Notes under the pieces: model-generated
Seen by the model: the letters and a program-made list of their open reading frames with translations, nothing else
Told to the model about the DNA's origin: nothing
The model's database searches: none
Source: an uncultured virus (IMG/VR IMGVR_UViG_3300021425_003921)
Taxonomy: Duplodnaviria > Heunggongvirae > Uroviricota > Caudoviricetes
DNA: 20,000 bases
Reading direction: 5' to 3' (one strand)
Virus record (IMG/VR): IMGVR_UViG_3300021425_003921
Part shown: positions 77 through 18,602 of the stretch, in pieces
Numbering within the stretch: the first letter of the stretch is position 1
How the letters are laid out: the number at the start of each line of letters is the position of its first letter
Made by a program: the position numbers and the translations under genes

Positions 77-1771
77 TCACAGTTCAAACTCATCAAGGAT
101 GCCGTCGTTATCGTCGTCGGAATCCATGTAGTCTTCTACGCCATCGTTATCATGATCGAACTGTCCGGTAAGGTCGTTACCATCATTGTTCTCGAACCAA
201 TCGCTGAGTCCGTCGTTGTCGTCATCAAGGTCAGTCATGTCCCAAATACCGTCGTTATCGTGGTCGTAGCGGTAGTTTCCTACCATACCATCAACTTCAT
301 CAACATCGAGGATGTTGTCGTTGTCGTCGTCGGTGTCTACGCCATCATTGAGTCCATCGTTATCGTGGTCACGCATAGCCGAGGTTCCATTGTCGTAAAG
401 GTCTTTGTAATTGTCGATTCCATCGTTGTCGATATCAAGATCTACATTATCAGGAATGTTATCATTGTCGTGGTCGTAAATGTTGGTGTTGGGGTTGCCG
501 TCATTGACTTCCTCACGGTCGTCTATGCCGTCGCCGTCATCGTCGTCGTCTTCGGCATCATTGATACCGTCGTTGTCGTGGTCCATTGGGTTGTCGTCGA
601 GGACATCGGGGATTCCATCGTTATCGTCGTCGTTATCAATTTCGTTAGGGATGCCGTCGCCGTCGTTGTCATTGTCGCCATTCTGAGCCTGATTGTCTAA
701 CTGTTGGCCTTGTTGTTGGTCGGATTGTTGTCCTTGTTGGCCTTGTTGTCCATTTTGGGTTTGACCTTGCTGTTGCTCGTTTTGCCCATTTTGGTTTTGT
801 CCATTTTGGTCTCCGGCTTGTTGATCAGTTTGCTGACCTCCCTGTTGTCCACCTTGTTGTTGTTGGCCTTGACCATTATCTTGTTGCTGGCCTTGTTGGC
901 CTTGTTGTCCTGATTGTTGTGAACCTTGGCCTTGTTGGCCTTGTTGTCCCTGTTGGCCTTGCTGACCTTGCTGACCTTGCTGGCCTTGTTGTCCTTGTTG
1001 GCCTTGTTGTCCAGACTGTCCTTGGCCCTGTCCTTGACCTTGACCTTGGCCTTGGCCTTGGCCTTGACCCTGACCCTGACCTTGCCCCTGTCCTTGACCT
1101 TGGCCCTGCCCTTGTCCTTGTCCTTGTCCTTGTCCTTGACCTTGGCCTTGTCCCTGACCTTGACCTTGGCCTTGGCCTTGGCCTTGTCCTTGGCCTTGCC
1201 CTTGCCCTTGGCCTTGGCCCTGTCCTTGACCTTGGCCTTGACCTTCGCCTTGTCCACCTGCGTCGGATTCGCCGCCGCCTTCGGTGCCACCATCGCCGCT
1301 ACCGGCTTGGGACTCTTGGAAATCAGGGTCGTAAGCATCAGGAATGCCATCGCCATCAGAATCGGAGTATTCACCATCATTAGGATCTGTAGGGAATTGG
1401 TCCGTAGCATCGGACTTTCCATCACCGTCTGTATCAGCGTTGTTTGGATTTGTGCCCTTGGCATACTCTTGAGCGTTAGTCAATCCATCGTTATCGGGGT
1501 CGGCGTTGCCGTCGCCACCGTTAGTGGGATTGAGACCGTTGGAGACTTCCCAACCATCTGGGAGTCCATCGCCATCAGAATCAGCGTTGTTCATGTTAGT
1601 GCCTTGAGATTGTTCTTCAGCGTTGGTGAGACCATCGCCATCCCAATCGGCTCCACCGTCGGAGGGGTCGAGAGGGTCAGAACCATCGGCGGCTCCAATA
1701 CCTGCACTCATAGCGAGCATTAGGGCAGTTAAAATTGTAAGCATCGTATTTTTGAATTTATTTGTCTTCAT
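77..1771 (-). CDS. Secreted/surface Asp-rich Ca-binding repeat protein (thrombospondin type 3-like DxDxDG repeats) with central Gly/Gln low-complexity linker
   Basis: 564 aa ORF. Signal peptide (MKTNKFKN, hydrophobic core, ..IGAA). N-terminal DxDGDGLxD/NxxE..GTNPNNAD repeats, a (GQ)n/(GQQ)n tract, and C-terminal DHDNDGIxDxxDxDDDND repeats. Visibly more GC-rich than the rest of the window. Confidence 0.85.
   Translation of the reverse strand: MKTNKFKNTMLTILTALMLAMSAGIGAADGSDPLDPSDGGADWDGDGLTNAEEQSQGTNMNNADSDGDGLPDGWEVSNGLNPTNGGDGNADPDNDGLTNAQEYAKGTNPNNADTDGDGKSDATDQFPTDPNDGEYSDSDGDGIPDAYDPDFQESQAGSGDGGTEGGGESDAGGQGEGQGQGQGQGQGQGQGQGQGQGQGQGQGQGQGQGQGQGQGQGQGQGQGQGQGQGQGQGQGQGQGQGQGQGQGQGQGQSGQQGQQGQQGQQGQQGQQGQQGQQGQQGQGSQQSGQQGQQGQQQDNGQGQQQQGGQQGGQQTDQQAGDQNGQNQNGQNEQQQGQTQNGQQGQQGQQSDQQQGQQLDNQAQNGDNDNDGDGIPNEIDNDDDNDGIPDVLDDNPMDHDNDGINDAEDDDDDGDGIDDREEVNDGNPNTNIYDHDNDNIPDNVDLDIDNDGIDNYKDLYDNGTSAMRDHDNDGLNDGVDTDDDNDNILDVDEVDGMVGNYRYDHDNDGIWDMTDLDDDNDGLSDWFENNDGNDLTGQFDHDNDGVEDYMDSDDDNDGILDEFEL
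932..1255 (-). repeat. Coding tandem repeat: (Gly-Gln)38 at 1243-1016 followed by (Gly-Gln-Gln)9 at 1012-932
   Basis: 6-nt units GGN-CAR and 9-nt units GGN-CAR-CAR with mixed synonymous codons, counted in frame. Confidence 0.95.
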
Positions 1772-2631: not shown

Positions 2632-3036
2632 TTATATCTTTCTTTTGTTAATAGCATCGTATCTTATTGTTAATCCAATGGCTTCCTTAATAATATTATT
2701 GGGCCAATCATTAGATTCATCAATGCCGTGTTTTAGATATATATAGGCGGGGTCCATTTGGTTCCACCCACCGGCAATGTCCACCAGTCTAAAACCAAGA
2801 TATTCATCAATTACCTCAAGTTCGGTCATCACGCTATCTTGAAAACGGTTATTAATTTTAATATTTTGCAACAACAAATCTATTCTTTGTTGGGTCCATA
2901 CTCCTTCGTCAATTTGAAAATACCAACCTTGAGAATATAATTCTCGAAGAACTTCCTTAAGCGGAGTATCATACCTCTCCCATTGTTCCAAATATTCAGC
3001 AATATTTTCTTGGGCTGTTCTAAGATCAACTATCAT
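2632..3036 (-). CDS. Hypothetical protein with C-terminal YDAINKRKI motif
   Basis: True start probably ATG 3036 after SD AAGGTGAT; the longer 3207 start overlaps the upstream ORF. 134 aa. Confidence 0.7.
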   Translation of the reverse strand: MIVDLRTAQENIAEYLEQWERYDTPLKEVLRELYSQGWYFQIDEGVWTQQRIDLLLQNIKINNRFQDSVMTELEVIDEYLGFRLVDIAGGWNQMDPAYIYLKHGIDESNDWPNNIIKEAIGLTIRYDAINKRKI

Positions 3037-3040
3037 GATA

Positions 3041-3313
3041 TCACCTTCGGTCTTTTTTGAGCATATCTCTAATTCCGGGGATTTCGAAATCGACATTAGG
3101 TGCTTTGGTAATATCGGTAGCAGGTTTGGGTGCTCCCAATTTACTATCAGAACCAATCTTTTGACCACCTTTACCGGGGCGGGTGGCTTCATAATGGGCA
3201 TTAACAATATCTTGGGCAGTTAGGTTGGGTTGTAGTTGTGGTTTAACGCTGGAAGACATGATTTTATGTTTTTCTGCTTCCATAGCCTTTAAAATATCTT
3301 CTTTAGTAGTCAT
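3041..3313 (-). CDS. Hypothetical protein (90 aa)
   Basis: SD GAGGTGA upstream; overlaps the stop of the preceding gene. Confidence 0.7.
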   Translation of the reverse strand: MTTKEDILKAMEAEKHKIMSSSVKPQLQPNLTAQDIVNAHYEATRPGKGGQKIGSDSKLGAPKPATDITKAPNVDFEIPGIRDMLKKDRR

Positions 3314-3653
3314 GTGCTTTCACCTCGAATAAATATGCAGTCGTAAGATAACGATCTCCTTTTTTGCCTCGGTAGCGTTGAAAACTAAGAATTTGTTCTC
3401 TTGGGTCACCACCATCATAAAGAAACTTTTGCAAAAAGGAATCGGTCAATTCATTTAGGTAGGTCTTTACTTTAACCATGTCATAATCTTCAGGAAGTGA
3501 AAATTGCTCTATTTGCCAAGCCACAAAATCATCAGCGTGTTTTTGGGTTAAAATAACTCGAAGATTCAAAATTGGACCTTCATATTGATTTTGACCAATA
3601 TCTACCCATAACCAATATCGATCGGGTTGTCGTAGCCAATTAATTAGATTCAT
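3303..3653 (-). CDS. Hypothetical protein, N-terminal LINWLR family
   Basis: Begins MNLINWLRQ; ATGA overlap with the upstream gene. Confidence 0.75.
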   Translation of the reverse strand: MNLINWLRQPDRYWLWVDIGQNQYEGPILNLRVILTQKHADDFVAWQIEQFSLPEDYDMVKVKTYLNELTDSFLQKFLYDGGDPREQILSFQRYRGKKGDRYLTTAYLFEVKAHDY

Positions 3654-4069
3654 GATTTGACAACTCCGGTATTAAAAGCAAAATATTGGTCATCAGAACA
3701 AACAAAACTAATTTGTTCAGTTTCTCCTAATAAAATTTGTTGAAATAGTTTTTCTAAAATGGTTTGAACCTCTCCTGTTGTGGAAAGATAATTTTGTTCA
3801 TCCGAATCCATATTTTGATATGTTTCTGCCCACAAAGGACTGCGAGCATCAATTTGTGGCCTCCATTTTAATTCTAATATTCTACAATCACCGGTATTCC
3901 AATAATCGATAAGATATGACCAATTCGATAAAACTTTTTGATAAACTTCTCGTGAATAAAATTTAACGGTCAAATCTTGGTCATAAGATCCGTAAGAAGC
4001 CGTAAAAAAGGTTTCAGATTGACGGTGGCGAGATGGAGAATCTCGAATCCAATTAATGATTTCAGACAT
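3650..4069 (-). CDS. Hypothetical protein, N-terminal IINWIR family
   Basis: Begins MSEIINWIRD; TAATG overlap at 4067-4071 supports start 4069. Shares QDLTV with the upstream gene. Confidence 0.75.
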   Translation of the reverse strand: MSEIINWIRDSPSRHRQSETFFTASYGSYDQDLTVKFYSREVYQKVLSNWSYLIDYWNTGDCRILELKWRPQIDARSPLWAETYQNMDSDEQNYLSTTGEVQTILEKLFQQILLGETEQISFVCSDDQYFAFNTGVVKS

Positions 4070-4467
4070 TAGTTCCAACTCCCAATAGTATTGGTTGAAT
4101 CAAGACGATAAGTAGCATATTTCAAATCGTCAATATCATCGCCTGAACTCATACTAATATTTACAATATCAAAATTCTCTTGGGCTAAAAGAGTATCTCG
4201 CAAGGCAAAAACATAACTATAATCCTCATGATAAGAGTCTCTGCCTGTTCCAATCCTTATAGAAAGATGTTCAGTGTGGCCGTCAAGAAGATAATCGTTA
4301 TCTACCTCAAAAAAATCCATAACTTTTTCAATAAGACTTTTCCAAGTGTCTTGGACATTTGTAACTTGAACTAATGAAACCGTGAGATCTTGATTCCCAG
4401 CATCATAATTAGAAGAAGTCAATATCCAAATAGGTTTTCGGTCATGGAGCCAATTAATGATTTCCAT
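4069..4467 (-). CDS. Hypothetical protein, N-terminal IINWLH family
   Basis: Begins MEIINWLHD; ATG 4467 lies 22 nt from the TATA-type box. Confidence 0.75.
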   Translation of the reverse strand: MEIINWLHDRKPIWILTSSNYDAGNQDLTVSLVQVTNVQDTWKSLIEKVMDFFEVDNDYLLDGHTEHLSIRIGTGRDSYHEDYSYVFALRDTLLAQENFDIVNISMSSGDDIDDLKYATYRLDSTNTIGSWN

Positions 4468-4488
4468 AAGTGTATCTATGATACACAA

Positions 4489-6575: not shown

Positions 6576-6830
6576 TTAATAACCATTTCGCTTTAATCCC
6601 CATAGATTGACTTGATGGCTACGAGTTCGGCTAAGAGAACTGGTATCTACTTTATCTAATAACACAAATTCTGAATTGCCTCGCAAGGCAAAGGTAATTT
6701 CCCGGGGTGTGGGAACATGGCGGCGACCGGAAGTAACAATGGCTTGTCGAATTTGTTCAGCAGTAGCGGGATGTCGAGCCAAAAGGGTTTTGGCATGATC
6801 GATGATTACTTGTTGTTTTGAGCGGCCCAT
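6576..6830 (-). CDS. Small basic protein, putative winged-helix DNA-binding; paralog of 10902-11141
   Basis: TAEQIRQAIVTSGRRHVPTPREITFALRGNSEF vs TAQTMIDRLFDVGRREIPPKRSLSALMKQDPDF. Confidence 0.6.
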   Translation of the reverse strand: MGRSKQQVIIDHAKTLLARHPATAEQIRQAIVTSGRRHVPTPREITFALRGNSEFVLLDKVDTSSLSRTRSHQVNLWGLKRNGY

Positions 6831-9538: not shown

Positions 9539-9946
9539 ATGATTCTTACTTGGAATCCTGCTTTTAGAATGCTGTTAGAAGCATTCAATGATGGAAACGA
9601 AAGAGTTTGGTTATTATATGGTTTAAATAATGCAAGTTTTTTAGAATCGGATTTTTGGCAAAGAATTAAAAACGCTAATCCTTATTTAGCCTCTTCGACC
9701 ATTATAGAAGAGTATGAAAAAATGGAAGACTCTTACGAATTCCCGGGTGGCGATTTAGAAGATTACAAAACAAACTTTAAAAAAATATTAATGAGTCCTA
9801 ATTATCGTGAAGCAGAATTTGAGGGTATATGGGATGAAAGAGAAGAATGTTGGTATATCAACAATAATTGGTATTTGGCTCCTTTTGTTTTGACCCCCAA
9901 ATATTTATTACAACAATCTATTAATTATAATAAATTAAAGTTGTGA
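9539..9946 (+). CDS. Hypothetical acidic, aromatic-rich protein
   Basis: 135 aa; ends QQSINYNKLKL, a possible degenerate AINK motif. Confidence 0.7.
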   Translation: MILTWNPAFRMLLEAFNDGNERVWLLYGLNNASFLESDFWQRIKNANPYLASSTIIEEYEKMEDSYEFPGGDLEDYKTNFKKILMSPNYREAEFEGIWDEREECWYINNNWYLAPFVLTPKYLLQQSINYNKLKL

Positions 9947-10372
9947 TGCGGGGAAAATAGTGTAAATGTTTTCCCATTGACCTTCGCCCTGATTTTCCCA
10001 CCAAAAATGAATAGTAATGGGTGATTGTATTTTCCACGGATCGGCAATTATATCGGAAATAATGTTTCGAATTTTATCTACTTTATTAAGCCATGCAGGA
10101 TCCGAAAAGTTTTCTGAATCTTCTCTCTCGGCCATATAGTAAGGATTAGAACCCATAATGGATGGGCCTTCAGTATAGAATCCAGCAACATCGAAATTTT
10201 CATATTCGTCCCAAAATTCATTTTGGTCAAACATTCGAACCTTTAAAACTTTGGTGTCTTGACCTTTTTTAAGCATATTGGTAATATTAGCGGTTTCCCT
10301 TTCTGCATAATTTATATGCAGATATTGAAAAAAGACAACATCAGAATTGCGAAGCCAATTGATAATCCCCAT
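9935..10372 (-). CDS. Hypothetical protein, N-terminal IINWLR family
   Basis: Begins MGIINWLRN; SD GGAGGAG at the end of the upstream gene. Confidence 0.75.
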   Translation of the reverse strand: MGIINWLRNSDVVFFQYLHINYAERETANITNMLKKGQDTKVLKVRMFDQNEFWDEYENFDVAGFYTEGPSIMGSNPYYMAEREDSENFSDPAWLNKVDKIRNIISDIIADPWKIQSPITIHFWWENQGEGQWENIYTIFPASQL

Positions 10373-10901: not shown

Positions 10902-11141
10902 TCAAGCAATTCTCTTAAAGGTGGCGGGGCCACGAGTGGTAGTTTTGGGTAGTTGTTCAAAGTCAGGGTCTTGCTTCATAAGAGCCGACAAACTTCGCTT
11001 AGGTGGAATTTCTCGACGACCGACATCAAACAATCGGTCAATCATGGTTTGGGCAGTTACCACTTCATCAACCAAAACTAAAGATTTGGCGGCTTGATAA
11101 GAGGTTGGCTTGTTCTTTTTTCTAATAATTTTTTTGGTCAT
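10902..11141 (-). CDS. Small basic protein, putative winged-helix DNA-binding; paralog of 6576-6830
   Basis: Shares TAxx..GRRxxPxxRxxxxxxxxxxxF pattern; directly downstream of PCNA. Confidence 0.6.
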   Translation of the reverse strand: MTKKIIRKKNKPTSYQAAKSLVLVDEVVTAQTMIDRLFDVGRREIPPKRSLSALMKQDPDFEQLPKTTTRGPATFKRIA

Positions 11142-11145
11142 GGGG

Positions 11146-11868
11146 TCACTTCCTTGGGGCTACTAAGGCGGTCATGTCAATAGACTCGTAAGTCCATTGG
11201 AATTCAATTGGGTTGTCAGGACCACCACGAAGCGTGAGGTCTTGCTTGGGGGCAGCAGTTAAAACAGATTTAACTTCTTCGGTGGTAAATTGTGAGGAGC
11301 CAATAGTTCCGGTAACTGTTTGTTGAAGTGGTGTCCAAGAAATAACTTCGTCACCTGAACCAGTAGTCCACACTAAATCTTGGTTATCGTTAGCATTGAT
11401 AATAAAACTCAAATTTTTCCCTGAAGTTTTGATAAAGTCGTTAGCCTCTTTGCCGGGGATAGTGGCATCATAGTTATGGTCAATGGCAGGCCATTCAGAA
11501 ATTTGGTGCATAAGGTCTAATCGCAATAATTTGATGTTTTGACGAATGCCGTTGGCTTGAAGATAAAAGCGATCGTTTTCATAAGTAAAAACTAATTCAT
11601 CTTTGGCAGTAAGCGTTTTGATAATTTGTCCCATACGACTAAAGATAACACCAATATCTAAATGCGTTTGAGTAGATACCCAAGAATAATCTAAGAAGGC
11701 GTCGGCCGGGGCCACGATTCGCAACATTTTATAACGATTGCCATCAACTAACATAGTAGACAATCCTTCGGAATCCCATCGAAGAATTCCTTCTTCGTTA
11801 ATGGCTTCCATGGCTCGCAAAATATTTTTAGCAAGTGGCACTCTGATTTTGGCTTGTAGTCGGGTCAT
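11146..11868 (-). CDS. pcn: DNA polymerase sliding clamp (archaeal-type PCNA, divergent)
   Basis: 240 aa. N-terminal ILRAMEAINEEGILRWDSEGLSTMLVD..MLRI...AFLDY, IGV, late PIEF and C-terminal LVAPRK match the PCNA pattern. Confidence 0.85.
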   Translation of the reverse strand: MTRLQAKIRVPLAKNILRAMEAINEEGILRWDSEGLSTMLVDGNRYKMLRIVAPADAFLDYSWVSTQTHLDIGVIFSRMGQIIKTLTAKDELVFTYENDRFYLQANGIRQNIKLLRLDLMHQISEWPAIDHNYDATIPGKEANDFIKTSGKNLSFIINANDNQDLVWTTGSGDEVISWTPLQQTVTGTIGSSQFTTEEVKSVLTAAPKQDLTLRGGPDNPIEFQWTYESIDMTALVAPRK

Positions 11869-12353
11869 GATTCATTCTCTCCTATCCATTCGTGGGAATA
11901 ACATACGACACCATATCGCACGGCGGCATTACTCATATTACGGTTACGACCTTCATGTAGTTTTCGGGCAATTCCGTTTTTGCTGGTAGGTCGCCACTTA
12001 GGAGATTTGTTGCGATACATACCTAATTTGGGATTAGTAGTTTTGCTATAATAGCGTTTTCCCTCGGATTTTATAATCATGCCGATACATTCCGATAAAG
12101 CCGTTCCTAATCCCATGCCTTGAAAGTCCGCAAGAATAACTAAGCGATGTTCTCGAAAAGCATTTTTGAGTGTTCCGCTGGGTTGAGGTAATACCGAGTT
12201 GAAGCCTACTAATTCGTCATTAAGATAAGCCACAAAACATCGGGCGGCAACATTTAATTGATTAGAAAGATAGTGATGCTTTTCAAAAACTTTCCAATAA
12301 GTTCTTTTGGCTTCAGCACCAAAGATCTCAAAGACCTCAATATTCAATTTCAA
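11865..12353 (-). CDS. GNAT acetyltransferase, Mom-like (HHYL motif)
   Basis: FEKHHYL near the N-terminus; acetyl-CoA motif A RLVILADFQGMGLG. Overlaps both the ABC ATPase and PCNA genes. Confidence 0.8.
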   Translation of the reverse strand: MKLNIEVFEIFGAEAKRTYWKVFEKHHYLSNQLNVAARCFVAYLNDELVGFNSVLPQPSGTLKNAFREHRLVILADFQGMGLGTALSECIGMIIKSEGKRYYSKTTNPKLGMYRNKSPKWRPTSKNGIARKLHEGRNRNMSNAAVRYGVVCYSHEWIGENES

Positions 12354-12951
12354 TTCGAGCCACTCTCCTGCGGTGAGTTACATCCATCTCTGCTAAGGCC
12401 ATACTATCGGTATCGAAAATCCAATCTGGTTTAAGCCAATCAATAATATCACGATGACAAGAAGCCAAAACAATGTTTTGGAGTCCTTCAGTATGAACAT
12501 AATTATGAAGAGCGATAGAAAGTGATTTGGCGACTTCTCGATTTACAACGGAAGTGTATTCATCAATAATGGCTCCATCAGATAGTTGTCGTGCTACATC
12601 GGCTCTAAATCTTTCTCCATTAGACAAAACTCGATAAGGTTTCGTCATGCTGGGAATTGATGATAATCCACAAGCCATTAGTTTTTTAACGGCTTCTTCG
12701 GGATTAGCGAAATGAGAAACGATAGCCCGATCAGACTGCCATTCATGACCTACTTCAGTAAAATTAAAATAATTTTTTAGGATTTGGGATTTTCCTGAAC
12801 CGGAAGAGCCCACGATTAAACCAATTTTGAAATTTGCCGGGGCGGTGAAATCGGGGAGGGTGAACTCAGAAGTTCCATCGAATTCATAATCAAAAGAATC
12901 GGCAAGATAATCTGTAAATTCATCAGGAATAACTTGACAAACTAATTTCAT
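12337..12951 (-). CDS. Soluble ABC-type ATPase (GNAT-associated viral family)
   Basis: Walker A GSSGSGKS, signature LSNGE, Walker B AIIDEY, H-loop ASCH. No TM partner. Start 12951 from promoter spacing. Confidence 0.88.
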   Translation of the reverse strand: MKLVCQVIPDEFTDYLADSFDYEFDGTSEFTLPDFTAPANFKIGLIVGSSGSGKSQILKNYFNFTEVGHEWQSDRAIVSHFANPEEAVKKLMACGLSSIPSMTKPYRVLSNGERFRADVARQLSDGAIIDEYTSVVNREVAKSLSIALHNYVHTEGLQNIVLASCHRDIIDWLKPDWIFDTDSMALAEMDVTHRRRVARIEIEY

Positions 12952-12972
12952 GAAGAAATTTAAGGTTACCAC

Positions 12973-12986
12973 CTATTTATAGATTT
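12973..12986 (-). promoter_or_regulatory. TATA-type promoter AAATCTATAAATAG overlapping the upstream stop codon
   Basis: 22 nt before ATG 12951. Confidence 0.7.
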
Positions 12987-13417
12987 TGCTTATTGATAGC
13001 GGCCACAAATTCGTAAGATGGCAATTCAGAAGACATAACTGTGGTGACGGCTCGTTCTCCGTTTCTTACTTTTTCTAAAGACCGTAAAGAAACAAAATAA
13101 GTGAGTTGAGGATCGAAATCCTCAGTTAAAAGACTAATTTTTATATTTTTGCCTTCTACACTACTACGGCGGGCGTATCCGGCCAATTCACTGTTGGTGC
13201 TTTGAAATTGATTATCAATCTTGGGAATATCTCCGTCCACAGGTAATTGAAAATTCAGGGCTGTATATTTTTGGCCGTCGGAAGTCATGTATGTTTTGAC
13301 ATCATAAAATCCTTGGTTAAGAATAATAACTCCGGTGTCTAAATCAATACTTCCAACAAGTTTTGTTCCTCCAGCAGTGGGAGACTCATAAACTCCGTAA
13401 ATATTGTAAGACACCAT
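12977..13417 (-). CDS. Hypothetical beta-rich protein with C-terminal AAINKQNL motif
   Basis: 146 aa with its own promoter. Confidence 0.7.
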   Translation of the reverse strand: MVSYNIYGVYESPTAGGTKLVGSIDLDTGVIILNQGFYDVKTYMTSDGQKYTALNFQLPVDGDIPKIDNQFQSTNSELAGYARRSSVEGKNIKISLLTEDFDPQLTYFVSLRSLEKVRNGERAVTTVMSSELPSYEFVAAINKQNL

Positions 13418-13454: not shown

Positions 13455-14852
13455 TTATTCCGTAGATTGAGAACGATTTAATGATCGCAAAATTGGTCGA
13501 AGATTAGAATTATCGTTAGAACCTCCATCCACTCGCCTTACGATATGATCGAAGTCGATAAGTCGTGGATGCACGGTAGTTCCGGAGATTGAACAAGTAA
13601 TCATGCCTTCAGAATCCATATGCGTTTCACGAAGTTCTTGGCGTTGCTTTTTGCTAATTGGTGCATTGACTTGAGGCATTCCGTTGGAATAAAGATGGTT
13701 TTCTAATTCTTCATAAGCCGTGTCAATCATGGCTAAATAGGATGAAGTATCAATACTATCTCCACGACCAGCAATTTTTACTGCAATCAAAGAAGTATTG
13801 ATTTGTGGTTCCTTTTGAACAAAATCATTAATCCATTTAGCAATAACTTGACTTTGCATAGAAAGATTAGAAATATTGTGATTTGCAAGTAAATGGCTTA
13901 GTATAATCGTGATGAAAATAGTCTTTCGAGGGTCATTACCCGAAAGAATTTCAATTCCATGTCCTGCAACTGCAGCGTAAAGATCTAAATATTGCCGTGT
14001 TTCATCTAACATATTCTTGAGATCTTTTTCAGAAAGGGTGCTCAAAGTATTGGTATCAAATTTAAACTCTTGACCATTTTTAAAGTTAGAATTATTGTTG
14101 ATATATTGATAATAATATTGTAGATGCTTAAACAAGGCTTGGATATTAGTAAGGTGGTCCATGTTTACAGAATAACCTTCATTACAATAATCTTTCCATT
14201 GTGATTTGTGAGCAAAATCATAAAGAGTTCTATAATTTGTTCGAAGATAGTTTCGAGAATGATATTTTTGCATGGGTTTAAGTCCTGTTGTCCCATCATT
14301 TAATCTAAGAAAAATATCTGCTGCTGTCCAACCATTACCTTTAGCAAATTCATACACATTAATTCTTGCATTTTCCATGTTATCTTGTTCAGTAGCAGGC
14401 AAATTGGTATAACTTCCAGAATATTTTTTTGCATTTTGATTTTCGGTAAGTGACATATATCGGCCTTGAATTTTAATATCATCATCCATATATTTCATAA
14501 GAGTCATAATTCGATGTTGTCCATCAATGATATAGTAACAAAAATTACCATCATCAAATTCCTTTTTCTCAACCATAATTTCTCCAATAGTAATATTACA
14601 AAGAACAGAATCTACCAAGCGACTGTTCCATCCTGTTTTTCGGTCTTGATATTTGCGTTGGTATTCATCAACCTTTAGACGACCTTTTTTATACAAATTA
14701 AAAAACTTTTGAAGGTTCCATGCTTGACAAGTTCCGAGGGCTTTTTTAAGTTGATTCTGTTTTGTGTTTGGTTTCTCTACCAAATCTTTTGGATCTGTGA
14801 CGACTTGGCTATTGACTGTTATGGCTTCTTCTTCTGTAATTACGACATTCAT
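13455..14852 (-). CDS. DUF262 (ParB/Srx-fold) plus C-terminal HNH nuclease, GmrSD-like
   Basis: YQRKY..W, LVDSVL, IIDGQHR and IFLRLNDG match DUF262 motifs; C-terminal CSISG..DFDHI...GGSNDNSNL..LN is HNH. ATG 14852 follows SD GGAGAGTGA. Confidence 0.85.
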   Translation of the reverse strand: MNVVITEEEAITVNSQVVTDPKDLVEKPNTKQNQLKKALGTCQAWNLQKFFNLYKKGRLKVDEYQRKYQDRKTGWNSRLVDSVLCNITIGEIMVEKKEFDDGNFCYYIIDGQHRIMTLMKYMDDDIKIQGRYMSLTENQNAKKYSGSYTNLPATEQDNMENARINVYEFAKGNGWTAADIFLRLNDGTTGLKPMQKYHSRNYLRTNYRTLYDFAHKSQWKDYCNEGYSVNMDHLTNIQALFKHLQYYYQYINNNSNFKNGQEFKFDTNTLSTLSEKDLKNMLDETRQYLDLYAAVAGHGIEILSGNDPRKTIFITIILSHLLANHNISNLSMQSQVIAKWINDFVQKEPQINTSLIAVKIAGRGDSIDTSSYLAMIDTAYEELENHLYSNGMPQVNAPISKKQRQELRETHMDSEGMITCSISGTTVHPRLIDFDHIVRRVDGGSNDNSNLRPILRSLNRSQSTE

Positions 14853-14907
14853 ATTTATCACTCTCCTGTTCTGATTTTACTTAAAAATCAATTACCCTTA
14901 TAAAGTT

Positions 14908-15660
14908 TTATGTATTGTTGTTGCCCATAAAGGAATCAAAATGAGTTTTAGACTTGGGATCTAAATCAATTAAAATGGCGGTGCGGTTGTGGTCTTCGCA
15001 AACCGGCCATGTGCTACAAGAACCTGCGAAACCATCTAAGACGACATCATTAGGGTCGGTGGTAGACAACACCATGCGTTTAATGAGGTCATAGGGGATT
15101 TGGTTATACCATCCTTTGTGTTCTGCTGAGCCAGCCTTAACCATATTTATTTCCCACCAATCATAAGGACTAACGCCCTTACTGCCTTTGGCAATTTGCT
15201 TTTGAACTCGTGGGTCATTTGGATTTTTGTAGGGCATCGGGTCAGCCTTGTTGTTAAACTTGGGTTGCTCACAATCTTGATGAACAAACCAAAGCAAAGC
15301 ACGGTGAGCCGTAGTAAATCGCTTTTTGGTCATACCAATGTTACTGGGATAAACCCACGAAATCCATTGTTGAAGTCGATAACCTTTGGACTCAATAATG
15401 GGAAGTAAACGAGCACAGGCTTCGGGATAGTGAACTAAGAAAGCCGAACCATCGGCTGACAAAATGGGTTTGAGGGCTTCAAAAGTATCTCCGATAAGAT
15501 CGTGATATTCGTTTTCGGGAAGGTTGTCATCAACAAGATTAGAATAACGGAAACCAATGTTGTAAGGCGGGTCAAAGAAAGCAGTATTGATTTCTTGTGA
15601 TTCAGTTTGCAGTTGTTTGAGGGCAGAAACAACATCGGTGTTGATAAAACGATGGGCCAT
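14908..15660 (-). CDS. DNA amino-methyltransferase, beta class (N6-adenine/N4-cytosine family)
   Basis: Catalytic motif IV FDPPY precedes SAM-binding motif I VLDGFAGS; 250 aa. Confidence 0.92.
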   Translation of the reverse strand: MAHRFINTDVVSALKQLQTESQEINTAFFDPPYNIGFRYSNLVDDNLPENEYHDLIGDTFEALKPILSADGSAFLVHYPEACARLLPIIESKGYRLQQWISWVYPSNIGMTKKRFTTAHRALLWFVHQDCEQPKFNNKADPMPYKNPNDPRVQKQIAKGSKGVSPYDWWEINMVKAGSAEHKGWYNQIPYDLIKRMVLSTTDPNDVVLDGFAGSCSTWPVCEDHNRTAILIDLDPKSKTHFDSFMGNNNT

Positions 15661-15695: not shown

Positions 15696-16463
15696 TCAAA
15701 AGAGTGTCTTTTGTTCACCGACTTCTTGTGGTTCCGAAGCAATGTCTTCAAGACCTTGTAGGTTGGGATTGTTGCCGACGGCTTGGAAGATAATTTCTCG
15801 ATCAACTTCAGGATTCCATGTTTGGTCAATAAATTCCATAATGCGTTTGTAAGTTACGCTGGAAGGTTTTACACCGACTTCTTCTGAGGTGGTTCTAAAA
15901 TTAACTATGAAATCACCGATAGAACCATAGGTTTCGTAAATCTTTTTAGCAAGTTTCTTACCGACTCGTGGGATTTGTTCTAACACCGCATGATGTTTAT
16001 TGCTGGTAGAAGTTACTACCGTCACAGGACGAATTAATTGATGTAATTCTTCTTCTTCCATGCGAAGAGCATGACTTCTAATAAACCGAATAGTTTCGTC
16101 AAGGGAATCGGTATATACTACAGGAATGGCTTCGCTGGTAAGTCGGTTAAAAAATTGTTGGAGGGATTGAATCTGATTAGAATTGGCGGTGAAAATATCC
16201 CGAGGCGAGCCTTCGATAATAAGATAATTACGACCTCCAGAGGCTACTAAACGAGTGATTTGTTCTTGCATACGGCGAGAAGTCCAAGAAGAGTAAGCAT
16301 CACTCCATGTTTTTCGCTCGAATAACGAGAAATTCCCGGGGTTATCGTAATCATAAACTTTGATGTCGCCTTCGGAAAGGTTTTCTATGTCGGCATTGAG
16401 CAACATTTTGAACATAGTTTTAGTGTTGTCAGATTCTTTAGAATCAATGCTGATAGCGATCAT
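15696..16463 (-). CDS. ERCC4/XPF-family structure-specific nuclease with HhH domain and C-terminal clamp-binding motif
   Basis: IDSKE, GD...FERKTWSD, LIIEG, HhH IPRVGKKLA, C-terminal QKTLF. Start 16463 from promoter spacing. Confidence 0.88.
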   Translation of the reverse strand: MIAISIDSKESDNTKTMFKMLLNADIENLSEGDIKVYDYDNPGNFSLFERKTWSDAYSSWTSRRMQEQITRLVASGGRNYLIIEGSPRDIFTANSNQIQSLQQFFNRLTSEAIPVVYTDSLDETIRFIRSHALRMEEEELHQLIRPVTVVTSTSNKHHAVLEQIPRVGKKLAKKIYETYGSIGDFIVNFRTTSEEVGVKPSSVTYKRIMEFIDQTWNPEVDREIIFQAVGNNPNLQGLEDIASEPQEVGEQKTLF

Positions 16464-16538: not shown

Positions 16539-17033
16539 GTGACGGGAATTGTTAATTGGTTACGAGAGTCTGGTATATCGGATTATCCGTTGATTAGAAT
16601 AATTAAATCAGATAGTGCTGCGAGGGAGACCATAGGTGAAATTTTAGAAAACCAATTAGGAGTAGATATTGTAGATAACTCTGCTTATTTTGCTAATAAC
16701 AATGCTAACAAAATTATAGAAATTACAACCAATAACCTTGATCGGCCCCGTGTCGAGCGATTATTAAAATATCAAGATAAATATTTTAAGGATGCGACCG
16801 TAATTGTTTTAGAATCTTATAATGAAAAACAATTTCTTGATGATGTGGTTTTGGGGATAGATTATGGGCCATCTTACTTGCCGGTATGGGTTGCTAAATT
16901 TAATTTGAATGGTAATAATTATTATTTGGTTATTGATAATGAATTGGATTGTAGATTTGGTTGGGCAGTAATAAATAATCAAAAAACCCTTGTTACTACT
17001 TTGGAAGACTTATTGAGAAGATATAGGGATTAA
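16539..17033 (+). CDS. Hypothetical protein, N-terminal IVNWLR family
   Basis: Begins MTGIVNWLRE; first gene of a five-gene plus-strand operon. Confidence 0.75.
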   Translation: MTGIVNWLRESGISDYPLIRIIKSDSAARETIGEILENQLGVDIVDNSAYFANNNANKIIEITTNNLDRPRVERLLKYQDKYFKDATVIVLESYNEKQFLDDVVLGIDYGPSYLPVWVAKFNLNGNNYYLVIDNELDCRFGWAVINNQKTLVTTLEDLLRRYRD

Positions 17034-17035
17034 TC

Positions 17036-17557
17036 ATGTTGCCAAATTATAGTGTCACTTTGGACAAAAATAATCTTGTGGAAGAGATCGTTATCGATAA
17101 AGATTTATTTGTAAATGGTAAAAATTATTATATGAAAGTGATCGGAATCAACTCGTTTGGACATACTATTACTACTTACGAATTTAAAATCAAAAAAATA
17201 CCACAATTTTTTGATAATCGATTGTGGAAAAATTTTGATTTGGAGGGATTAATAATTTTTAATCCCTATGAGACTTCCAAAACCGAGGATACGGTTGTGT
17301 GGGATGGTAAGATAAAAAAACGACAGGTTATTCCTGAGGAGGAAAAATTTAGCCATTTTGATTCACAAATAGAAAGCATACTATCACAAAAATGGCCTAT
17401 TTGGAGTAAAGTTGAGGGGGTTTGGATTACTCCTGAATTTAAAGATGTTCCCAGTTTTTTGTATCGAGAATGGGTAATGGGAAATCTTTTGCAAGATATT
17501 GAAATTTCGTTTGAAGAAATAATCAATCCGATGGCTATCAATCAGGAGGTGATATGA
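17036..17557 (+). CDS. Hypothetical protein with C-terminal MAINQEVI motif
   Basis: 173 aa; coupled to neighbours. Confidence 0.75.
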   Translation: MLPNYSVTLDKNNLVEEIVIDKDLFVNGKNYYMKVIGINSFGHTITTYEFKIKKIPQFFDNRLWKNFDLEGLIIFNPYETSKTEDTVVWDGKIKKRQVIPEEEKFSHFDSQIESILSQKWPIWSKVEGVWITPEFKDVPSFLYREWVMGNLLQDIEISFEEIINPMAINQEVI

Positions 17558-18063
17558 TGACTTATTTTCCTTCCGAACAATGGAGTAATAAATTATTTTC
17601 AATGGGGCAATATGGAAGTATTTTCGATGAATTTTTAGATCTACCAAGTTCGTATAAATTACTGATGAAATTGGCTAAAGAAAACTTACAAAAAGGACCT
17701 ACTTCACAAGTTTCTTTTGGTCCTGATTATAACGAATATTTATTAGAATTATCAAAACAACACGGGATATTTTTATTGACTAATCCATCATATAAAGAAG
17801 ACCAAGATTTAGGAGATAATTTAATAGTGGTGCCTATGTTTATAGAACATAATAAACAAAGAGGAAGGTTAGAACCCACAGATGTATGGACAATTGATTT
17901 AGATAATCAAACTTATGATGGGATTCCGCTTAGCGATGATTATAATGGTTCGGTTTATGATATTTATAAATTAGGTAAGCCTTTTATGTTTAAAGTAGAA
18001 AATTTTTTCCGAAAACATTATGATGAAACTTATGATGCTATTAATAAAAGGAGGGTGTTATAA
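17554..18063 (+). CDS. Hypothetical protein with C-terminal YDAINKRRVL motif
   Basis: 169 aa; ATGA overlap, SD GGAGGTGA. Confidence 0.75.
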   Translation: MMTYFPSEQWSNKLFSMGQYGSIFDEFLDLPSSYKLLMKLAKENLQKGPTSQVSFGPDYNEYLLELSKQHGIFLLTNPSYKEDQDLGDNLIVVPMFIEHNKQRGRLEPTDVWTIDLDNQTYDGIPLSDDYNGSVYDIYKLGKPFMFKVENFFRKHYDETYDAINKRRVL

Positions 18064-18602
18064 TGTTTAAACCGGAAGTGTGGGCCATTATTTATAATCG
18101 GTTTAAAACCGATAAATATGATACTTCTCGTTGGTCTGATGCCGCAATTATGAAAACATTAAAGGGTTCGGATGTAACTTTAACATGGTATCCTGAAATG
18201 TCGGCAGCAGATTGGTGGACTTTTTATGAATTAGGTGATTTAACAGCAAATGATGAAAGAATAGTTGCTGAAGTTTCTTTGCCAAAAAAAGGTTTTTGGG
18301 CGAGATTACATCATGCTTATGCTACTAATAGAATACTTTTTACTGATAAAGATGAAAGGGAATGGTATGATGAATGGATAAAACCTTTTGATGATCCATT
18401 GAGGGAGGATTGGCCTGATGTATATACAAAAACCCCAAGAGATTATATGAATAATGCTCGCAATTATTTTGATAATGAAGCACCTATCGAAATGATGAAT
18501 CAAGAAAACTTTGATGTGAATAATCCTGCTGTTTTGTGGGAGTGGCGTCCACCTCAAGAAAATAATTATTGGCAAGCAATTAATAAGCAAGAGGTGTTAT
18601 AA
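18063..18602 (+). CDS. Hypothetical Trp-rich protein with C-terminal WQAINKQEVL motif
   Basis: 179 aa; TAATG overlap. Confidence 0.75.
   Translation: MFKPEVWAIIYNRFKTDKYDTSRWSDAAIMKTLKGSDVTLTWYPEMSAADWWTFYELGDLTANDERIVAEVSLPKKGFWARLHHAYATNRILFTDKDEREWYDEWIKPFDDPLREDWPDVYTKTPRDYMNNARNYFDNEAPIEMMNQENFDVNNPAVLWEWRPPQENNYWQAINKQEVL

Follow-up and report, generated by a model that had tools for sequence, protein, structure and literature searches.

TmcA/NAT10 combines an ATPase with a GNAT acyltransferase and forms N4-acetylcytidine in RNA. A phage family in which an ABC-type ATPase is coupled to a GNAT includes proteins of pT24, PX29, phiE255 (gp29) and LE4 and carries the JGI label "ABC-type ATPase with predicted acetyltransferase domain". 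pT24 is named, in the accessible part of PMC7824862, for an ABC-ATPase-coupled GNAT (quoted accession QAX98348.1) that is predicted to acylate a DNA base and is kept apart from Mom; the prediction is cited there to Iyer et al. 2013 (Aravind's group). The literature searched contained no demonstration of an activity for any member of this family. Phage Mu Mom, also of the GNAT fold, uses Gly-tRNA and needs no ATPase partner, and in vitro no clamp is required by the purified enzyme, which modifies dsDNA post-replicatively, according to the accessible part of PMC13219725.

Here we examined a 20,000-nucleotide stretch of DNA, referred to as the window, from an uncultured virus (IMG/VR IMGVR_UViG_3300021425_003921). 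A first-pass annotation had described three overlapping minus-strand reading frames, an ABC ATPase starting at 12951, a GNAT with an HHYL motif and a PCNA joined by an ATGA overlap, and all three lie at these coordinates. The locus and its neighbors comprise the following features.

10902..11141, minus strand: conserved 79-aa gene, starting 4 nt past the PCNA stop
11146..11868, minus strand: divergent archaeal-type PCNA, 240 aa, a core gene of the virus group
11865..12353, minus strand: GNAT acyltransferase, 162 aa, C-terminal half of phrog_11143, pI 9.65
12361..12369, minus strand: Shine-Dalgarno-like AGGAGAGTG, 7 nt 5' of the GNAT TTG, read from the sequence and of putative function
12337..12951, minus strand: ABC-type ATPase, 204 aa, N-terminal half of phrog_11143
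12970..12988, minus strand: predicted archaeal-type promoter CAAAATCTATAAATAGGTG, consisting of an A-rich element, TATAAATA and GGTG, 18 nt 5' of the ABC ATG
12977..13417, minus strand: 146-aa gene with its own promoter-like element; directly 5' of the PCNA promoter in loci L103-L106 (empty-site arrangement)
13455..14861, minus strand: GmrSD_N plus HNH nuclease (PF03235, E 2e-15), sporadic in the variable slot (3/41 loci among the matches listed)
14908..15660, minus strand: N6/N4 DNA methyltransferase (E 3e-33), directly 5' of PCNA in 16 relatives among the matches listed
15696..16463, minus strand: Hef/XPF-type ERCC4 nuclease with an acidic tail followed by the C-terminal QKTLF, a motif of the clamp-binding type

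The ABC reading frame opens with a GTG at 12972, and the ATG at 12951 was taken as the start because it matches the N-termini of homologues. The GNAT gene starts with a TTG at 12353, shares a 17-nt overlap with the ABC gene and contains KHHYL, and its stop overlaps the PCNA ATG at 11868. The transcription unit probably includes a fourth gene (11141-10902), the 79-aa gene, which was absent from the operon as first annotated. A contig from an independent study covers positions 11806-12735, and hence both junctions, with 0 differences and 0 gaps (X2 record 5), and the ABC/GNAT junction is identical in loci L082-L086; these observations rule out an assembly error as the origin of the split. A slippery-site frameshift was rejected as the main reading, with no slippery heptamer seen and with the GNAT of loci L002-L004 having its own ATG past the ABC stop. 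Because the GNAT start is a TTG, a +1 shift at the overlap may nevertheless occur. Two metatranscriptomes yielded only a 224-nt GNAT contig and a 223-nt PCNA contig, too short to inform on operon structure or transcript level.

Together, the ABC and GNAT proteins tile a single phage profile of 357 positions, phrog_11143, at 8-203 (E 7e-59) and 209-352 (E 9e-34), respectively, and this profile is also matched by 59/59 GNAT homologues. All motifs of the window ABC are intact (Walker A GSSGSGKS, signature LSNGE, Walker B IIDEY, H-loop SCH), as they are in 61, 61, 56 and 61, respectively, of 62 ABC sequences. The window GNAT contains, next to KHHYL, an invariant R70 and the acyl-CoA loop QGMGLG. 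Phage records gave 67 matches to the window ABC, including the pT24 protein with 37% identity over the whole ABC (E 5e-34). The proposal that the pair belongs to a family predicted to modify DNA bases is thus upheld by the phrog_11143 match and by the homology to pT24, as the latter is presented in the accessible part of PMC7824862.

The window pair has the same domains as the phage ABC-coupled GNATs, in the same ABC-then-GNAT order, and shares with them the catalytic motifs, HHYL and a C-terminal YSHE; the LE4 member is the top viral fold match of the window GNAT model (TM 0.74, E 9e-12). Whereas the phage proteins are usually fused, the window encodes two overlapping genes. The C terminus of the window ABC is a copy of the linker strand (RVARIEIEY), and each of the split halves keeps one copy, an arrangement also present in the marine phage loci L002-L006. 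The window pair further differs from the phage family in its placement in an archaeal virus, behind a PCNA promoter. Comparison with locus L085 gave dN/dS values of about 0.07 for the ABC and about 0.09 for the GNAT, similar to those of core genes; both genes are under purifying selection. By sequence, the pair is a new member of a known family whose activity is so far predicted.

This family is large, with 1,910 clusters at 50% identity reaching E<=0.001, and is distributed over temperate and lytic phages of many phyla. Among the GNAT-relative loci listed from IMG/VR (n=80), 68 are fused, 10 are split and 2 are cut off, and the ABC half is present in all but the 2 that are cut off (78/80); IMG/VR gives the 60-69% GNAT relatives without locus context. 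Stand-alone ABC and GNAT halves of the same lengths are common among the nearest homologues. A second type of split, with a 25-nt overlap and a GNAT starting MFKxHHYL, is found in L065, L076, L077 and L029 and may involve a programmed frameshift. In the T4-like marine phages of loci L005-L007 (554-4663), the split pair is directly followed by a pyrimidine-dimer glycosylase-like gene (PF03013).

The first-pass annotation had called the GNAT Mom-like, a designation that our comparisons do not bear out. None of the 59 GNATs matches the Mom profiles PF25680 (Pfam) or phrog_1384 (PHROG) at E<=0.1; as controls, Mu Mom matches phrog_1384 at 8e-84 and an L078 ORF matches PF25680 at 6e-45. Comparison of the GNAT family with Mom by hhalign gave 0.9% and 2.6%, the latter with 9 Mom proteins and aligning the His-Tyr region only, with H27-Y28 of the GNAT opposite H58-Y59 of Mom. 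From the Mom active-site set (H58, Y59, R111, S124, D149, R151), the His-Tyr pair is aligned, R70 is by eye a plausible equivalent of R111, and the invariant D149 has no evident counterpart at the matching place. The QGxGxG acyl-CoA loop is present in 58/59 family GNATs versus 0/9 Mom proteins. For comparison with the essential HTH-like insertion of Mom, the GNAT model shows a low-confidence basic loop at about 131-148. In fold searches with this model, Mom was not among the PDB matches listed, a result that leaves room for a likeness, and Mom-like viral proteins occupied ranks 18 and 30 in BFVD. Mom and the window GNAT have in common the GNAT fold, the N-terminal His-Tyr pair, by eye a strand-4 Arg, and a basic protein, and probably an anti-restriction role, but Mom lacks the acyl-CoA loop that the window GNAT keeps, and only the latter is paired with an ABC protein. 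We place the GNAT in a separate family.

The third gene of the cluster encodes a sliding clamp. All PDB sequence matches of the PCNA (17/17) are sliding clamps, and its predicted structure has the two-domain fold of a clamp and fits that of A. fulgidus PCNA (3p83) with a TM of 0.88 (E 1e-17, rmsd 2.3 over 248 columns). Profile matches are weak in Pfam (E 0.012) and below the cut-off for NF002222 (E 1.6e-14), and IMG/VR contained no match to the window PCNA. Among the matches listed are 41 PCNA loci, 2 without upstream DNA, leaving 39 informative loci that are not independent and whose counts are to be read as samples. The ABC-GNAT pair precedes PCNA in 5/39 of these, 3 near-identical to the window and 2 of a second lineage; the PCNAs of the two cassette-bearing lineages are 79% identical. 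In the other 34 listed loci, the upstream slot holds an N6/N4 methyltransferase in 16 cases, the 146-aa gene in 4 and other small ORFs in 14. By contrast, the 79-aa gene follows PCNA in 38/41 listed loci, with the other 3 cut inside PCNA, and is the true fixed neighbor of PCNA. It is possibly DUF3860-like, for which an Atlas feature match to PF12976 at 0.90 is a lead only. The fixed gene frame consists of XPF, the variable slot, PCNA, the 79-aa gene and RNR, and the ABC-GNAT pair is an accessory cassette inserted in the variable slot. In a PCNA tree (32 rows, midpoint root), cassette-bearing rows fall outside a supported methyltransferase clade (98/97) and form no supported clade of their own; therefore, one gain with later loss and lateral exchange both fit. 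Two small conserved genes, 10902-11141 and 6576-6830 (minus strand), located 3' of PCNA and RNR, respectively, in nearly all relatives, look alike and winged-helix-like by eye.

A single promoter had been proposed for ABC, GNAT and PCNA, and this agrees with the single predicted TATA-type element 5' of the ABC gene and with a PCNA gene that lacks such an element. Within this element, TATAAATA is positioned at -30 to -23 relative to the ABC ATG. The element at 12988-12970 is the best match in the window (13.5 bits) to a matrix derived from the PCNA upstream regions of relatives, a score inside the range of best matches in shuffled sequence (5.6-13.8, 20 shuffles); counted by eye, 10 of the 13 top window matches are 18-21 nt 5' of an ORF start. 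Among the matches listed, 34/34 cassette-free loci have the same TATA-type element directly 5' of the PCNA ATG, at ~30 nt, and 33/34 have AGGTG, which is 23-25 nt from the ATG in 23/24 unique upstream sequences. In the window and in L082-L086, it is the ABC ATG that follows this element, and PCNA has nothing but a Shine-Dalgarno-like sequence in front of it. The gene order is 146-aa gene, promoter, PCNA in L103-L106, and 146-aa gene, promoter, ABC, GNAT, PCNA in the window. The cassette therefore sits between PCNA and the PCNA promoter, and the three proteins would be translated from one message. A promoter of the form AAA-N3-TATAA[AG]TAGGTG recurs ~18-21 nt 5' of start codons across the virus (12988, 9042, 16500, 2643, 4504, 13454, 10781, 8947, 19647 and 5690), which suggests leaderless transcripts. 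A sigma-70 scan of the window (37 sites vs 28.7 +/- 4.6) is uninformative for an archaeal promoter.

The first-pass annotation took the shared operon to mean that the modifying enzyme rides the viral clamp and acylates nascent DNA at the fork, the clamp being co-expressed for this purpose. Consistent with this proposal, the shared promoter and the ATGA overlap are kept in two lineages and probably in a third (P0002/P0161/P0146, which have in common a longest contig of 15,992), the fused gene of the T4-like locus L060 adjoins gp45/gp44, and many family members sit among replication genes. However, adjacency to PCNA is not conserved. Besides the 5/39 PCNA loci, only 1 of 53 dereplicated ABC-GNAT loci among the matches listed has a clamp within 2.5 kb (gp45 in L060), in a screen that covered 193 ORFs between 150 and 620 aa long with a cut-off of E<=1e-4, too strict to recover the window PCNA itself (E 0.012); with the PCNA profile, nothing below E 0.2 was found in the listed ABC-GNAT loci. 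Most related viruses keep the clamp without the cassette (34/39 listed loci and also a ~171 kb relative, in which a six-frame search of its two overlapping contigs, possibly incomplete, gave no ABC or GNAT match), so that a special link between cassette and clamp is unlikely. Small temperate phages, for example, P335 and phiE255, are also among the carriers of the family.

Neither half of the enzyme appears equipped to bind a clamp. No PIP box was found in 59 GNAT or 62 ABC sequences, in a search that non-canonical motifs would escape, and QxxLF occurs in 0/59 GNATs and 2/62 ABCs, the window ABC not being among them, whereas a C-terminal QxxLF is kept in the window and in 20/41 PCNA loci among the matches listed, always on the XPF gene. 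Judged by this motif, the XPF nuclease is a good candidate and a likelier PCNA client than ABC-GNAT. The argument for a clamp had also invoked a reported dependence of Mom on the beta clamp. Our literature search of openly licensed papers found no such report. Instead, the accessible part of PMC12867686 describes a need of the transcription activator MuC for the clamp at the Pmom promoter, and the word "clamp" has 0 occurrences in the accessible part of PMC13219725, in which Mom acts on dsDNA without one. The link of the cassette to PCNA looks positional, and we consider a clamp-riding enzyme improbable. The same low expectation applies to the idea of a split ABC-GNAT domesticated by the viral replisome, docking on PCNA through a non-canonical surface and writing a new acyl base (e.g. 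N4-acetylcytosine) into nascent DNA; if true, DNA hypermodification tethered to a clamp would be without precedent, as would a base of this type in an archaeal virus that encodes its own PolD.

Other genes of the window were examined as well. The GmrSD-HNH nuclease was rejected as a fixed restriction partner of the cassette, being absent from the cassette-bearing L085/L086 and present in the cassette-free L116/L117. Profile searches found no family for the 146-aa gene (12977-13417). A 564-aa signal-peptide protein (77-1771, minus strand), also present in the ~171 kb relative, contains a long Gly-Gln tract flanked by TSP3 calcium-binding repeats. A short terminal tag recurs in eleven small ORFs (raw tally) that are not alike in other respects; it is either an N-terminal [IV]INW[LI]R (5 ORFs: 3303-3653, 3650-4078, 4069-4488 and 9935-10372 on the minus strand, 16539-17033 on the plus strand) or a C-terminal [AS]IN[KQY] (6 ORFs: 2632-3207 and 12977-13417 on the minus strand, 9539-9946, 17036-17557, 17554-18063 and 18063-18602 on the plus strand). 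Because relatives keep these tags with varied codons, they look protein-level. Terminal signals are known from T4 internal proteins, and by this parallel the tags are possibly capsid-targeting or host-binding signals.

Regarding the substrate of the pair, the GNATs of the family are uniformly basic (median pI 9.73, minimum 9.15, n=59). In the Mu-like phage phiE255, the fused gene is located 3' of the tail-fibre genes, where Mu has com-mom; the small gene preceding it was checked and is not Com. Within 2.5 kb, 8 of the 53 dereplicated loci have a DNA methyltransferase and 1 has a Mom (raw counts among the matches listed), and immediate neighbors are very mixed. Longer homologues (n=43) include single fusions to SNF2, a Strawberry-notch helicase and ASCH (3/43), most having no informative extra domain. 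The basic GNAT, the mom-equivalent position, the methyltransferase neighbors, the fusions and the alignment of H27-Y28 with the His-Tyr pair of Mom give indirect support to a nucleic-acid target, from which we infer DNA as the substrate. Acylation of DNA without dependence on the clamp is the reading that we favor, with moderate confidence.

A basic surface would be equally suited to tRNA, and the GNAT could instead acetylate tRNA or a host or viral protein, either for host takeover or as an abortive toxin that the ABC half switches in the manner of ABC-sensor defence systems. The canonical acetyl-CoA loop is in keeping with such a role, and phage GNATs that modify RNA polymerase are described in the accessible part of PMC7824862. 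The nearest PDB folds of the GNAT model are generic small-molecule and protein N-acetyltransferases (Z 12-14, 8-17% identity), with RimI/Naa50/Ard1-type protein acetylases at the top; they fit a protein target, although such generic folds would neither support nor exclude DNA. However, a comparison with PADLOC yielded no model for the GNAT and nothing beyond a P-loop-level match for the ABC half, and no antitoxin-like partner is conserved. The mom-equivalent position in phiE255 also speaks against this alternative, and a distribution across many phyla and both lytic and temperate phages is easier to reconcile with a universal substrate than with a single host protein. We consider a protein or tRNA target possible but rather unlikely. 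Frequent neighbors of the family are Thy1, dUTPase, RNR, NUDIX and HD-domain genes, and a formyltransferase lies 3' of the fused gene in phiE255, as might be expected if the pair acted on a free nucleotide or small molecule before replication, yielding an acylated base built in by the polymerase or an altered host signalling nucleotide. Yet these genes are common in phage replication regions anyway, no kinase or dNTP-removal partner is conserved, and the strongly basic GNAT suggests a polymeric substrate, so that we regard action on free nucleotides as very unlikely.

The archaeal assignment of the virus made in the first-pass annotation is well supported by inference from a relative; the window itself contains no virion gene. 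The ~171 kb relative (G001, overlapping contigs C16 and C26) carries PCNA and was assigned to a bacterial MAG by binning. It encodes a terminase-like domain (E 4e-17; found by PHROGs and missed by Pfam Terminase_6N), tail-fibre-like genes and a helicase (PHROGs), as well as TBP, PolD DP1, PolD DP2 and, by eye, a TFB-like ORF. The only phage-record matches of the window XPF are haloarchaeal viruses. Terminase, tail-fibre, PolD, TBP and these XPF matches together point to an archaeal tailed virus; Poseidoniales as the host is a guess. The magroviruses (Aoguangviridae; PMC10768690) are likewise tailed viruses of marine archaea that encode PCNA, ligase, MCM and TFB themselves, as in the virus group of the window, but they are described as having genomes of 90-100 kb and PolB, whereas the relative has ~171 kb, both PolD subunits and TBP. 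Our literature search listed no virus of this kind.

Under our preferred reading of clamp-independent DNA acylation, one branch of a large group of marine archaeal viruses gained a split ABC-GNAT at a site that separates the PCNA start codon from its promoter, and the two proteins made from overlapping genes probably re-form the usual fused enzyme. With acyl-CoA as donor, the basic GNAT would act on viral DNA once this has been synthesised, transferring the acyl group (acetyl being the likeliest) to an exocyclic base amine. By analogy with TmcA/NAT10, where base acylation involves an ATPase working together with an acyl-CoA GNAT, the ABC half may use ATP to load onto or open DNA. The ATPase of TmcA/NAT10 is helicase-type and that of the window ABC-type, and sequence matches between the two systems do not go beyond a weak GNAT_acetyltr_2 match in 1/59 GNATs. 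N4 of cytosine is our guess for the target because N6-acyl adenine is reported to be unstable in the accessible part of PMC13219725. Co-expression with PCNA would provide replication-phase timing without a need of the enzyme for the clamp itself, and the acyl mark would protect the viral genome against restriction by host nucleases.

In conclusion, the locus brings no new kind of system, and the ~171 kb relative with PolD and TBP is probably more notable than the ABC-GNAT locus. The locus clearly illustrates how a cassette can capture the promoter of a core gene, and it provides a compact 204+162 aa version of ABC-GNAT. Coastal metagenomes contain natural pairs of related viruses with and without the cassette, and DNA acylation is therefore open to long-read comparison. 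The ABC-GNAT family is widespread and, in the literature searched, its function is still predicted; if DNA acylation is true, a new natural base would follow.
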